Positions 41,846-49,466 of a stretch of 64,000 bases of DNA are shown piece after piece. This stretch comes from an uncultured Gemmatimonadales bacterium. GTDB taxonomy: Bacteria > Gemmatimonadota > Gemmatimonadetes > Gemmatimonadales > GWC2-71-9. The first letter of the stretch is position 1. Each line of letters starts with the position of its first letter. The notes under the pieces are model-generated. The model saw only the letters and a list, made by a program, of their open reading frames with translations, searched no databases and was not told the origin of the DNA. The stretch is from NCBI GenBank assembly GCA_963821525.1, contig CAWGED010000010.1, positions 64,001 through 128,000 on the forward strand, written 5' to 3'. The position numbers and the translations under genes were made by a program.

Positions 41846-42013
41846 TTACTCGTTCTCCGGGGTTTCCCGTCTCCGGTACAGCATGACGGCGATGCCGCTG
41901 GCGATGACGAATGCGGGCAGTATGAGAATGACCATACTACCCAGCACCGCGCTCATGAAGCGCGCCATGGCATCCACGCCGGAGACGCCGGCACACCACC
42001 ACTGCCAGGCCAT
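41846..42013 (-). CDS. 55-aa single-TM protein at the end of the oxidase operon
   Basis: AGGA RBS; MAWQWWCAGVSG...ILILPAFVIASGIAVMLYRRR; below the ORF-track cutoff. Confidence 0.55.
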   Translation of the reverse strand: MAWQWWCAGVSGVDAMARFMSAVLGSMVILILPAFVIASGIAVMLYRRRETPENE

Positions 42014-42055
42014 TGGCGTCCTATTGAGGACTTCGCCCGGAGGATGTCGATTGGC

Positions 42056-42337
42056 TCATGATGCCTGCGGGCTGAGCGTGACGAGGCGGAAGGCGTCGCG
42101 CCACAGATGGTTGAGCATGAGCAGTACGAAGACCAGGGTCGGGATCAGGGTCCAGAACAGGGCGGCTCGCTCGTACCTGAGGCCCATGAAGTACAGCAGG
42201 GCGATCGCCGCCTCGGTGACCGCGAGCGCGAGGAGGACGGCGAGCAGGGATCCCTCGGGAAGAGAGGCGTAGGTAACTGCAACCTCCAGCGCGACAATCA
42301 GGGCCAAGGCGAACCACACCGCCACGTAGGTTCGCAT
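42056..42337 (-). CDS. Cytochrome c oxidase subunit IV family
   Basis: Three TMs; YFMGLRYE. Confidence 0.85.
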   Translation of the reverse strand: MRTYVAVWFALALIVALEVAVTYASLPEGSLLAVLLALAVTEAAIALLYFMGLRYERAALFWTLIPTLVFVLLMLNHLWRDAFRLVTLSPQAS

Positions 42338-42389
42338 CCCGGGACCCGCTTTCCTTCCCTGTTAGCCATGGCAGCCTCTCACGCAGACC

Positions 42390-43019
42390 TCAACGGGCGT
42401 TCATCAGGTAAACGAGAGGGAAGACGAACATCCACACCAGGTCGACGAAGTGCCAGTACAGTCCGGTGGTCTCGATGTGCCCGGCGGTGAGCCGGCCCCG
42501 CCCGAAGAGGCTGGCCACGACCGTCAGCGCGACCACGCCGCCGATCACGTGGAGCAGGTGCAGCCCGGTGATGCTGAAGAACGAGGCGCCGAACAGCACC
42601 GGACCTCCCACGGGATTGGTCGAGGGGCTCCACCCTTCGCCGAACATCTTGAACCATTCCCGGAGATGCAATGCGGCGAAGGCCGCTCCGAGGCAGGCGG
42701 TGCCAGCCATCCATTTCACCGTCGCGGCCCGCCGCCCGGCGTGCGCCGCGCCGACCGCGCCCAGCATGGTGAGGCTGCTGGTCAGCAGCACCAGGGTCAT
42801 GACGATGGCGTTGAGGATCGTCGGGACAGTGACGAAGGGCCGGGGCCAGTTCGGGCTCCCCGCCCGCAGGTAGCCGTAGCCGAAGAGGAGGGCGCCGAAG
42901 GTGGCGCCGTCCGCGATGATGAACAGCCACATGACCAGCTTCTTCGACTCGATGCCGAAGGGGGACTCCTCCAGCTCGGCCCCGTGGTGCATGGCCAGCG
43001 ACATCTCGGATTTGCTCAC
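42390..43019 (-). CDS. Heme-copper oxidase subunit III family
   Basis: MWLFIIAD, LLTSS, TGLHLLHV, GLYWHFVDLVWMFVFPLVY. Confidence 0.9.
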   Translation of the reverse strand: MSKSEMSLAMHHGAELEESPFGIESKKLVMWLFIIADGATFGALLFGYGYLRAGSPNWPRPFVTVPTILNAIVMTLVLLTSSLTMLGAVGAAHAGRRAATVKWMAGTACLGAAFAALHLREWFKMFGEGWSPSTNPVGGPVLFGASFFSITGLHLLHVIGGVVALTVVASLFGRGRLTAGHIETTGLYWHFVDLVWMFVFPLVYLMNAR

Positions 43020-43039
43020 ATCGACCTCCACCGGTCGCC

Positions 43040-46285: not shown

Positions 46286-46328
46286 GACGCCCGCCTTCGG
46301 TGACTACGGTGACAGAGCGCGCCTCTGC

Positions 46329-47049
46329 TTAGTAGGGCGTCGCCTTGAGGACGAAGTTGGCGGTCGCCGACTCCGTTCCGGACAGGGTGACCTCCTGACT
46401 CTGGGTCCCGAACCGCTCGTGCCACGCGGTCACGGTGTATTTCCCCGGCGGCAGCCCCTTCAGGCTGAACGTGCCGTCGTTCCCGGTCACGGCGTAGTTC
46501 GAGGTGGCCAAGCACCACGAAATAGCCGTGCATCCACGGATGGACGTTGCACTTCACGGCGATGAACTCCGGCTTCTCGTAGGTCGCCTTGATCGTCGGG
46601 GAGCCCGGCGGTTGCGACTTGTTCCACTCGGGGTTGACCTTGGCGAGCGGATGGATGTTGTGGGACGTCTGGTCGTCGTTATAGATCTCCAGGGGCTGCG
46701 CCACCTGCAGCGCGGCGACGTGCGGGATGTACTCGCAGCCTTTCTGGTCGTAACGCACGGGCGTGGCGGGAGCCGGGGCAGGCTGATCCCCCGCCGAGAT
46801 ATAGACCACCGCCCATTGGACCGTGTTGCCCGGCCCGGTGACGGCGCTCTCGGTCATCACCGGGGTGGGGTGTTGGGCGGCGCAGGAGGGCTCCTTCGCC
46901 ATATCGATGGGCCGCATCTTGGGCGGCGTGCCGGTGAAGGTCACGGTGCCACTGATCGCGCCGGCGCTCCGCCCCGGTGCGCCAGCCGCGCCGGTAAGAG
47001 TCGTGGAGGCGGCGATCAGGCCGAGTGCAGCAAGGTGCTTGGTACGCAT
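46329..47049 (-). CDS. Periplasmic cupredoxin / carboxypeptidase-regulatory-like domain protein (frameshift near 46505)
   Basis: Signal peptide; DQKGCEYIPHV, HNIH, KCNVHPWM, G.F.L..LPPG.Y. Confidence 0.8.
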
Positions 47050-47084
47050 TGTGACATCGTCCTGCAAGAGGTGATGAAATCTCC

Positions 47085-47931
47085 CTACTGCCCCAGGGGC
47101 TGCCCGATGGGAGTCAACTCCTTGCCGTGCTCCGGCAGCCAGGCGTTCCACAGGGCCGCCTCGGGGGTGTCGAGCGGCTGCAGGGTGCGGAGGAAGTGCA
47201 CCAGGTCCCACGCGTCCTGCGGCTGGATGTTGTCGGCGAATGACGGCATCGGGGTCCCATCCAGGCCGGTCATGAAGATCCGGTAGAGATCCTCGTTGGT
47301 TTCCCCGCACTTGAACCGCGAGCCGCTGGTGAAGTTGTAAGGGCGAATCGGGTTGTCCTTGCTGTCGGTCAGGGTGGAGGCCGACGGGCCATCGCCGTGG
47401 CCGGCGGGGCCGTGGCACTTCCAGCATTCCATCTTCTGGAATAGCTCGCGCCCATGGAGAATGCTTTCCATGGTAGCCGGGGTCTCCGGCGGAATGGTGA
47501 TCGGGGTTCCGGGCGACTCGGTGGTCCAGCGGGGGGAGAACGTCTTGATGTAGGCCACCAGATCCACCCGGGTCTGCTTGGTCAGCGGTCGCCAGGACGG
47601 CATGTTGGTGGTGACGAACCCGCGGGTCACGGCGCGGTACAGGTCGTCGTCGGTCGGCAGCGTGCCCGTCGGCGTCGAACGGCACTTGAAGACGGCCGCG
47701 GTGAAGTCCCGCGGCTTGGGGTCGATCCACATCGCGTTCTCCCCGGCCCCGTCTCCGGCCGGCCCATGACAAACGATGCAGTAGCGACGGTAACTGCTTC
47801 TTGCCCGCCGCGGCGTTGCCGTGCACGCCGTCGATCTGGGTTTCCTGTGCCGCGAGCGATGCCGCCCCCGATGCCATCAGGAGCAGGCATAGGCCCGAGG
47901 TGAACGCCATCCATTCGATTCTGATCCTCAT
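47085..47931 (-). CDS. Periplasmic diheme c-type cytochrome (frameshift near 47795)
   Basis: Signal peptide; CIVCH and CWKCH; PKPRDFT / PYNFT and MPSW / MPSF. Confidence 0.85.
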
Positions 47932-47945
47932 GGGAGGCCTCCTGC

Positions 47946-49466
47946 TCAGAAGTCGAAGTCGAGTGCGAAGAGCACGCTGGTGCTCCGCACGACGGTGTTG
48001 GTGGAGAGCGGGGGGATACCCACACCGTCGCCGCTCAGGGGGACAGTACCGGTGGTCTTGGTGATGGACACCTCGCCCAGGAACGCGAGGCCGGCACGGC
48101 TGAACATGATCGGGTACCAGCGGTACCCGAAGGTGAACGCGTCGACGTTGCCCAGGTCGCTCGGCGTTGCCGGATCTGCCTGTTGCTGCATCCGAACCAG
48201 CTCGCTCCGCTGCACGAACATGAACTGGGGATTGACGTAGTAGTGCAGCTCCAGGAGGTAACCATTCCATGATCGGATCCTGGGTACCCCCCGCCAGCAC
48301 CTGGTCGTCAGACCCATGCATGTAGAGCGGCAGCAACTCGAGGTTTCCCGAAGAAGAAGTCGCCCACCGCGCCGACCCGATAGAACGACTTGTTATCGGT
48401 GCCGGTGCCGGGCACCGGGTCCACGCCGCCGTTGACGGTCTCGAAACTCGTGGGCCGGTACCCGAGGTACCCGAAGACCCCGATGCGCTGGAGCCCGAGC
48501 TTGCCGACGTCGAAGGCCTGGCTGAGGGTGACCGAGCCATCGTAAGTCTTCCCCTGGGGCAGGCCTGGAGCGCCGTCGACCCCACTCAGGATCGCGACGC
48601 TCGCGCGACTGTAGCTGTTCGGTTGATGGCCCAGCCACTCCGACGCCGATCTGGTTGTCCCCCAGACCGAAGGTCGTCCCGTCTCCCACCGGCAGGAAGT
48701 GATAGCTCTGGTAGAACGAGCCGTTATTGGAGAGCGTGATGATGCGCTTCTCCGAGAGCATGTTGTCCAGCTCGAACTTGCCGATCTTGAGATTGGCCCA
48801 GGAGGACTTGAACAGATTGTCGAAGCGCACGAACGCCGCCTCGATCCCGACCCCTTCGCCATCCTCGAAGGTCGGCACGAACCCGAAGGTGATGTTCTTG
48901 TAGAGCGTACCCAGCATCAGCAGATCGGCGCCGGAGATGTCGAATCCCGCCTGGGTGATCGTCTTCGCTTCCGTGCCGCCGGCACCGTCATCCACCGGCT
49001 GATCGGTGGTCTCTTCCAGATGCCAGCCTGGCGTGGTACGGATCGCGACCGGCCAATACGATGGGTTGACCCAGATAGGCGAGTCGCGATCGTTGCCGAG
49101 CTGATAGCCCCGGTCCTTGAACGCCTGGCCGAACGCGTTCAGCTCGGGCCAGGCCGTGTGGCAGGCCGAGCAGGCGAGGTTGTACTTCCGGGCGAAGGCT
49201 GGAATCGCGGCCGCCGCATGGGAAGCCAGAGTGAATGCCGAGAGATGTGCGACGCTGGAAACCTCCGCCGCAACTCCGTTCCGAGCAGTGATGTAGGATT
49301 CGTAGTTCGGCCGGAGTGCACCGGCCGTTGCCCCGTCGAACCCGGGGGTGGGCGCAACCACGGTTGCCCAACCTCCCGAGGCTACCCCCAGGGCCAGACT
49401 ACCTGCGATCAGTACCGACCTGAACCAACCTTTCTCGCTCCCACGCTTTGTGCACGAGTGATTCAT
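47946..49466 (-). CDS. cyc2: Cyc2-like outer-membrane monoheme cytochrome c-porin fusion (frameshifts near 48640, 48350, 48270-48300)
   Basis: AIPAFARKYNLACSACHTAWPELNAFGQAFKDRGY, GKFELD, amphipathic beta-strands, C-terminal ALDFDF. Confidence 0.75.

Follow-up and report, generated by a model that had tools for sequence, protein, structure and literature searches.

A Cyc2-type porin, periplasmic carriers and a K-channel-less oxidase in one conserved operon: a candidate metal-to-oxygen electron chain in soil Gemmatimonadales

If a bacterium carries the genes for an outer-membrane haem-porin, for periplasmic electron carriers and for a terminal oxidase side by side, do these genes encode a single chain by which electrons from an external donor reach O2, and what is that donor likely to be? 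This question is raised by a locus at positions 41846-49466 of a 64,000-nucleotide stretch of DNA (hereafter the window; positions 64,001 to 128,000 of contig CAWGED010000010.1, assembly GCA_963821525.1) from an uncultured Gemmatimonadales bacterium. An earlier note, made from the sequence alone, had described here nine contiguous minus-strand genes similar to the rus operon of Acidithiobacillus, in a probable Gemmatimonadota host. The host does belong to this phylum (order Gemmatimonadales), and three-frame translation of 41800-49600, with starts and stops fixed, gives the nine genes in the order that had been described, the haem-porin being the first and a small membrane open reading frame (ORF) the last. 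Every module for a path from the outer membrane to O2 is present in this one tight cluster, which is conserved across two phyla, and its reading as an outer-membrane-to-O2 chain is supported. Our proposal, to which we give about even chances, is that the operon encodes a dedicated, co-inherited electron chain from an external dissolved reduced metal, most likely Fe(II), to O2. The host genome is 81% complete, and all protein analyses were carried out on the intact copies of the operon from two relatives at the level of the same genus (L011 and L012).

The marks of a Cyc2 given by Keffer et al. 2021 (PMC8406198) are the motif AxPxFAR[Q/K][T/Y] before CxxCH, PxL four residues after it, a single haem, a C-terminal beta-barrel porin and a length of at least 365 residues. 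The window porin and all 56 aligned homologues carry AxPxFARKY-x3-CxxCH-x3-PxL, with a single CxxCH, 414-454 residues from the motif onward and, in 55 of the 56, a terminal Phe; the identification of a Cyc2-like cytochrome-porin, made from the N-terminal motif, the CxxCH and the terminal Phe, thus holds. An AlphaFold model of the intact L011 copy (pLDDT 81.9, pTM 0.82, with low values over the first 21 residues) has a beta-barrel preceded by a helical haem region of short length. The best fold matches of the barrel are Omp32 (1e54, Z 24.2), PorB (3a2s, Z 23.9) and OprP (2o4v, Z 23.9), with porins overall at Z 22-24. PorB and OprO-type porins are also the modelling templates reported for Cyt572 and Cyc2 (PMC10654088 among the sources). 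Ahead of the haem motif, the N-terminus has a signal-like stretch and an extension of about 55 residues. Such an extra 30-60 residues between the signal-like stretch and the Cyc2 motif, often with a Y-x-A-Y-like motif within it, is seen in the Gemmatimonadales copies (window 49466-49205), the leader being shorter in the Acidobacteriota porins, and a similar stretch is present in another Cyc2-like gene of the host genome. This second gene (G000:C5:860221-861471; L091:9759-11442, minus strand) is of FARQT type and frameshifted; it is preceded by a monohaem cytochrome c gene and lies about 1.6 kb from a gene which, by sequence reading, encodes a Cu-nitrite-reductase-like copper protein.

General searches gave the operon porin no name. 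No matching family was found above cut-off in Pfam or NCBIfam, sequence searches of the PDB found zero relatives, the Atlas holds unnamed clusters and weak Porin_O_P neighbours only, and the 5026 matches among 8000 scored in a homologue search were close relatives, with no named Cyc2. For its placement, the references used were six metagenome loci, recognised solely by the published Cyt572 N-terminus, and three FARQT-type Cyc2s from named plasmids, a set without Cluster 1, Zetaproteobacteria or Acidithiobacillus sequences. With a profile of the operon porin, the Cyt572-type proteins reach 79-88 bits across some 180 positions, against 46-67 for the other Gemmatimonadota proteins of FARKY type and 37-46 for those of FARQT type; reciprocally, a Cyt572 profile gives 61-79 bits for the operon family and 13-32 for the others. 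When the Cyt572 profile was run against 1.84 billion representatives, there were 218 matches; of the 150 best, 50 have at least 365 residues, and 12 of these score above 300 bits on the operon profile, while the FARQT motif occurs in none of the 150. In a 25-row tree, 14 operon proteins and four Cyt572 rows are joined at 90/84 (not starred). Based on the reciprocal scores, the library-wide search and the tree, the porin is placed by sequence in the Cyc2 family, on the Cyt572/Cluster 3 side rather than with the compared FARQT-type Cyc2s. This placement fits a published network in which the neighbours of Cyt572 are from Acidobacteria and Nitrospira (PMC10654088), and among our comparators the nearest characterised relative of the porin, judged by these scores, is the Fe(II) oxidase of Cyt572 type.

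Both periplasmic carriers that had been described are present, viz. a dihaem cytochrome c, with two CxxCH in 55 of 55 homologues, and a type-1 copper protein. In the cytochrome, M76 and M194 are invariant and are likely the distal haem ligands. Its best PDB match, over about 210 residues, is 6h5l_B (Kustc0457; E 7.1e-54), and no c4 entry is among the matches listed by the same search up to E 1, although a Cyc1 structure is present in the PDB; a more distant relationship may exist. Because its best solved relative is Kustc0457, the protein is classed on this sequence match as Kustc0457-like and not as a c4-type Cyc1. In the copper protein, the ligands H100, C137, H140 and M143 are invariant in 43 of 43 homologues, and in the model (pLDDT 87.6) residues 65-150 form a cupredoxin domain (plastocyanin/amicyanin Z about 10) that is inserted within a transthyretin-like domain made by its two flanks (carboxypeptidase D match, Z 12.5). 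AcoP is not among the PDB profile and fold matches listed for it, though it may be a distant relative. Further dihaem/cupredoxin pairs occur near some Acidobacteriota loci, where upstream clusters are recurrent. In L050:5648-7173, L061:5270-6777 and L009 there are additional such pairs, a few kb upstream of the operon, and a distant Cyc2 with cupredoxin homologues on both sides, so that the two carriers seem to make up a module that can be reused.

The oxidase genes were identified, like the cytochrome, by Pfam and NCBIfam profiles, and the description of CoxA as an A1-type enzyme with GHPEVY is confirmed. The intact L012 CoxA matches Paracoccus denitrificans COX1 at E about 1e-106 and has the six His ligands, the GHPEVY Glu and cross-link Tyr and the D-channel Asp/Asn, all residues of established role, together with a CuA subunit II; GHPEVY and the D-channel Asp are present in all 68 copies scored. 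The K channel is altered. The Lys of helix VIII (P. denitrificans K354) is replaced in all 65 covered copies (66 in total), by Val in 26, Ala in 14, Ile in 10, Leu in 7 and Met and Thr in 4 each, and the Thr preceding it is likewise replaced in 65 of 65 (62 Ala and one each of Met, Ser and Phe). The numbering of D124 and K354 follows a 2020 preprint (bioRxiv 10.1101/2020.03.01.968255), according to which COX1 of acidophilic iron oxidisers has a hydrophobic residue for K354, keeps the D channel and is classed as A2. By sequence, the K-channel loss in the operon CoxA is as reported for these organisms, although the enzyme here is A1; this comparison concerns the shared loss of the Lys, which may be due to common ancestry or to convergence, and the region of COX2 E78, a residue lost in the acidophile clade, lies just outside the aligned stretch. 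CoxB retains the CuA motif H...CxQxCxxxHxxM and has no fused cytochrome c, which is consistent with its being fed by the operon's own carriers. A separate caa3 oxidase of the host keeps both the K-channel Lys and Thr; it is encoded by an ordinary caa3 operon, with cytochrome c fused to subunit II (G000:C8 about 123000-127000; L092:7055-11028), and is likely the housekeeping oxidase. In one related locus (L058) the CoxA gene has a stop codon at the Tyr of GHPEVY, an error or a pseudogene.

Of the 176 GTDB loci that were confirmed, the best 80 come mainly from Gemmatimonadales and Acidobacteriota. Sixty of these 80 have the full core order porin-cytochrome-cupredoxin-coxB-coxA-coxC-coxD, and in another 15 it is preserved up to the point where the contig ends. 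As the seven-gene core is complete in 60 of the 80 related loci, the gene order is not due to chance, and the operon can be regarded as conserved across two phyla. The remaining five loci, all from Acidobacteriota, lack the cox genes (L066, L074, L076, L080 and L081); each has porin and cytochrome, three of them with the cupredoxin, despite 10 kb of downstream sequence. In five loci the porin or operon is found at 60-82% identity in records titled Bacillota, Saccharimonadales, Chloroflexi or Binatia (L019, L055, L048, L064, L077), which may be mislabelled or misbinned contigs or may reflect transfer. Gemmatimonadota were surveyed in 301 genomes, viz. 300 drawn at a completeness of at least 90% and the host genome. 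Some Cyc2-like match is found in 122 of them, the close porin subfamily (E < 1e-50) in 28, all of one order (next-best genome 2.6e-16), and a search with the operon CoxA at E 1e-75, a cut-off set to leave out ordinary A1 paralogues, returns the identical 28 genomes; these related genomes are not independent, and no p-value is attached to the co-occurrence. Within genera the distribution is patchy (4 of 18, 4 of 10 and 1 of 11 genomes with the operon), which together with the co-occurrence indicates that the operon is gained or lost as a whole unit. In the phylum of one Acidobacteriota locus, there were matches in 8 of 201 genomes at E 1e-20.

In the assembly studied here, six of the nine operon genes are frameshifted, and it could be held that in this genome the cluster has decayed into pseudogenes, the more so as it is a hotspot with 13 frame switches in 7.6 kb. 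However, L012, a same-genus-level relative at 94.5% nucleotide identity, has every operon gene open. Relative to its coding stretches, the window shows 20 insertions and 2 deletions of one base each and a single in-frame deletion of 3 bases; a further 2-base gap lies close to the coxA start. The codon differences are 258 synonymous and 115 non-synonymous, with no stop. The changes specific to the window, 84 synonymous and 30 non-synonymous with 0 stops in 1673 codons, are comparable to those of the intact relatives themselves (53:23 and 142:44), and this synonymous excess indicates by sequence comparison that the operon is under purifying selection. A frame-tracking model gives 0.26-0.57 switches per coding kb over seven stretches of the genome, with hotspots of 10-16 switches per 8 kb at other sites of the assembly, and the extra bases are absent at the listed sites in contigs of close relatives from four other soil/rhizosphere runs. 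The idea that an insertion retains both alleles of a polymorphic third position fits 16 of the 20 sites and 84% of random insertions and does not discriminate. Since the same-genus copies are intact, in-frame stops are lacking and synonymous changes are in excess, as repair of the frameshifts in the earlier note had presupposed, the frameshifts are much more likely an assembly artefact than decay, which we consider very improbable, and the operon is real and, by these comparisons, probably intact and functional.

The genes of the operon are listed in Table 1. They overlap or are separated by 14-52 bases, their G+C content is similar to that of the remaining window, and they would be co-transcribed. 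A promoter/terminator scan of the operon found 1 and 5 sites, which is the chance expectation. No RNA run is among those listed as having matches, and two metatranscriptome runs yielded short, divergent pieces only, mainly of conserved oxidase motifs, which have no bearing on expression either way. The last ORF, of 55 residues, has no Pfam or NCBIfam family above cut-off; it recurs at the end of the operon in numerous loci of Gemmatimonadales and is likely an accessory oxidase subunit. On either side (39798-41719 and 50692-55734) are open frames common to the closest relatives only, the flanking genes not being conserved in Gemmatimonadales past these; by sequence reading they encode a FAD-linked oxidase-like protein, a small lipoprotein-like ORF, a membrane protein, a haemolysin-III-like protein and a Ser/Thr kinase with repeats.

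Table 1. Genes of the operon, with positions in the window, strand and basis of assignment
Gene or product	Position	Strand	Basis and remarks
Cyc2-type fused monohaem cytochrome-porin	47946..49466	-	motif, fold model, profiles, tree; frameshifted here
Periplasmic dihaem class I cytochrome c, Kustc0457-like	47085..47931	-	two CxxCH, PDB match; one frameshift
Type-1 copper cupredoxin domain within transthyretin/CarboxypepD_reg-like domain	46329..47049	-	Cu ligands, model, PF13620; one frameshift
coxB, CuA subunit II, no fused cytochrome c	45481..46285	-	PF00116, TIGR02866; frameshifted
coxA, A1-type subunit I, K-channel Lys and Thr replaced, D-channel residues retained	43638..45460	-	PF00115/TIGR02891; frameshifted
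coxC1, first subunit III-like gene	43040..43641	-	PF00510; frameshifted here, intact in L012
coxC2, second subunit III-like gene	42390..43019	-	PF00510, TIGR02842; intact
coxD, subunit IV	42056..42337	-	PF03626; intact
55-aa single-membrane-span protein	41846..42013	-	tblastn match in 34/80 loci

Other parts of the host genome indicate the respiratory setting of this operon. The genome, at its 81% completeness, gave zero matches in family searches for RuBisCO (other carbon-fixation routes were not searched) and for bc1 cytochrome b, and none above cut-off for rusticyanin (TIGR03095), for which there is one weak 30-bit match on another contig. The ctaA gene is outside the operon, on contig C19. 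This contig also has an ACIII-like cluster (G000:C19 about 164700-172000; L134), heavily frameshifted, with genes for pentahaem, molybdopterin-like/FeS, NrfD-family and monohaem proteins. Nitrogen-oxide respiration genes are present as well. By sequence reading, there is a nosZ-like gene with a monohaem cytochrome (G000:C5 about 454000-462000; L093), and about 4 kb from it a third, divergent and B-family-like haem-copper oxidase, which could be an O2 or a NO reductase. Elsewhere on contig C5 (about 357000-381500, part in L135) are large multihaem cytochromes, with segments of 16 and 21 CxxCH, adjoining a gene for a molybdopterin enzyme and NrfD/ferredoxin genes that are present in duplicate; this cluster is possibly a second extracellular or anaerobic electron-transfer system.

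In the chain that we propose, the donor, for which Fe(II) is the likeliest candidate, would pass into the barrel in the outer membrane and be oxidised at the single haem of the porin. Electrons would then flow inward, relayed across the periplasm by the dihaem cytochrome c and the type-1 copper protein (the order of these two being inferred), to CuA, haem a and a3-CuB of the second, K-channel-less A1 oxidase, where O2 would be reduced. The gain would be a proton-motive force adding to heterotrophic growth; this would be lithoheterotrophy rather than autotrophy, as the searches gave no RuBisCO and the genome has, outside the operon, both an ordinary caa3 oxidase and a cluster resembling ACIII. 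Several points weigh against this proposal. The similarity to Cyt572, with an identity of about 33%, is mostly limited to the N-terminal ~180 residues, and the branches of the sister grouping, with its support of only 90/84, are long. The function of Cluster 3 is rated the most uncertain, with Cyt572 possibly unrepresentative of it (PMC8406198), so that the caution of the earlier note, that many Cyc2 homologues have no verified iron-oxidase activity, holds; this uncertainty is also stressed elsewhere (PMC8446621, PMC13264449), and Cyc2 is present in many non-oxidisers (PMC5566968). Nitrospira are among the neighbours of Cyt572 (PMC10654088), Mn(II) oxidation has also been proposed for Cyc2 (PMC9040806), the closest solved relative of the dihaem carrier serves a nitrite-reducing hydroxylamine-oxidoreductase-type protein (HAO), five Acidobacteriota loci keep porin and carrier(s) with no cox genes, and the literature, mainly abstracts with few subscription papers, yielded no Fe(II)-oxidation or other functional test of these clusters. 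Cyc2 homologues have been mentioned in marine Gemmatimonadota (PMC11316326), and Acidoferrum is treated as an iron reducer (PMC7980381).

If the chain is as described, its donor could still be a different one: Mn(II), reduced quinones of humic matter or some other reductant in solution might give up electrons at the porin haem, again with coupling to O2. In Ca. Manganitrophaceae, Cyc2 counts as a core candidate for the oxidation of Mn(II) (PMC9040806), close relatives of the hosts are present in ordinary soil and rhizosphere metagenomes, and an oxidase lacking the K channel would go well with a donor of high potential that leaves little energy to spare. However, the sole characterised activities of Cyc2 and Cyt572 are the oxidation of Fe(II) (PMC8406198), and for Mn(II) it is PCC_1, not Cyc2, that is indicated as the family-specific gene (PMC9040806); to a donor other than Fe(II) we give a clearly lower but appreciable probability. 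The replacement of the K-channel Lys and Thr in every covered copy, the patchiness within genera and the detoxification role raised for Cyc2 (PMC8446621) could also be read to mean that the main service of the chain is protective or lies in the handling of metals (detoxification of Fe(II), scavenging of O2), the oxidase being poorly coupled and the energy gain small. This we hold to be unlikely, as the Asp and Asn of the D channel are conserved along with the Glu of GHPEVY, Acidithiobacillus grows by means of a similar K-less enzyme (bioRxiv 10.1101/2020.03.01.968255), and a five-gene oxidase would be a costly detoxifier.

The carriers point to one more interpretation, in which the porin serves to admit a small N or S compound that is oxidised in the periplasm, or in which the carriers feed the oxidase internally (e.g. 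from ACIII) and the porin haem is a side branch. Kustc0457 is the partner of a nitrite-reducing octahaem HAO in Kuenenia (PMC8042395) and is encoded beside Kustc0456, a type-1 cupredoxin (PMC12053348); as this closest solved relative of the dihaem carrier serves HAO, the carrier pair should not be interpreted as iron-specific. The further dihaem/cupredoxin pairs near some Acidobacteriota loci and the presence in the genome of an ACIII-like cluster and of nitrogen-oxide respiration genes are in line with such a role. It is nonetheless quite improbable, for no gene of the operon encodes a catalytic subunit that would act on such a substrate, the porin is accompanied by the oxidase in 28 of 28 genomes, and the haem motif is invariant in all 56 porins.

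Cluster 3 Cyc2 genes are frequent in environmental genomes, and what they do is considered uncertain. In the operon, one Cyc2 subfamily is tied to its own carriers and its own O2 reductase and is gained or lost with them as a unit (28 of 28 genomes); among candidates for testing a Cluster 3 Cyc2 directly, it is thereby the one with the best context. If Fe(II) or Mn(II) is indeed oxidised, then abundant soil 'heterotrophs' would be mixotrophic metal oxidisers. A natural K-channel-less A1 oxidase is of bioenergetic interest in itself. A wider claim, which we advance tentatively and at rather less than even chances, is that common soil Gemmatimonadales and Acidobacteriota have a self-contained and independently assembled analogue of the rus system, consisting of a Cyt572-side porin, an anammox-type dihaem/cupredoxin relay and a K-channel-less A1 oxidase, by which they would gain energy from aerobic Fe(II)/Mn(II) oxidation as lithoheterotrophs; they would then form an overlooked, widespread guild that defines the function of Cluster 3.

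Contrary to what might be concluded from the earlier note, gene clusters of this kind had been described before. In the 2020 preprint (bioRxiv 10.1101/2020.03.01.968255), variants of the rus cluster are described from Gemmatimonadetes and other soil metagenome-assembled genomes, with another cytochrome c for Cyc1, a duplicated COX3 and ctaA located elsewhere, and are proposed as a variant of iron oxidation; in host, rus-like order and each of these features they are like the present operon, and the Gemmatimonadetes clusters are very probably the same system. The passages of the preprint drawn on here contain no Cyc2 cluster placement, link to Kustc0457, statement on the K channel of Gemmatimonadetes or co-occurrence count, and a term search of the journal version (PMC8239418) gave no passage on these clusters. 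With Cyt572, the Fe(II) oxidase of Leptospirillum, the porin shares a FARKY-type N-terminus, a single CxxCH, a barrel, a C-terminal DF-x-aromatic and mutual profile matches, but the identity of about 33% extends over ~190 residues only and Cyt572 has ~420 residues against 520-550; moreover, the electrons of Leptospirillum reach a cbb3 oxidase by way of Cyt579, and the genes concerned do not form a cluster (PMC10654088), unlike in the operon. In Kuenenia stuttgartiensis, as here, the gene for the dihaem protein (Kustc0457) adjoins that for a type-1 copper protein (Kustc0456), although the anammox partner is a nitrite-reducing octahaem HAO, unlike in the operon. With the rus operon of Acidithiobacillus there is agreement in the order haem-porin, dihaem cytochrome, copper protein, coxB-A-C-D and, for the acidophile rus-type oxidase, in a hydrophobic residue for the K-channel Lys with the D channel kept. 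The parts themselves differ: the porin is on the Cyt572 side and not in Cluster 2, the dihaem protein is Kustc0457-like and not Cyc1, the copper protein has an extra transthyretin-like domain, there are two coxC genes, CoxA is A1 (GHPEVY) whereas the acidophile enzymes are A2, the operon has no rusticyanin or cta genes inside it and ends with coxD and the 55-aa ORF, and its host is not a known autotroph or acidophile. The likeness to rus thus stands for gene order and overall function but not for part-by-part homology; as neither rusticyanin nor a Cyc1-type cytochrome was found, it is not a rus operon, but, by analogy, it likely works like the rus chain.

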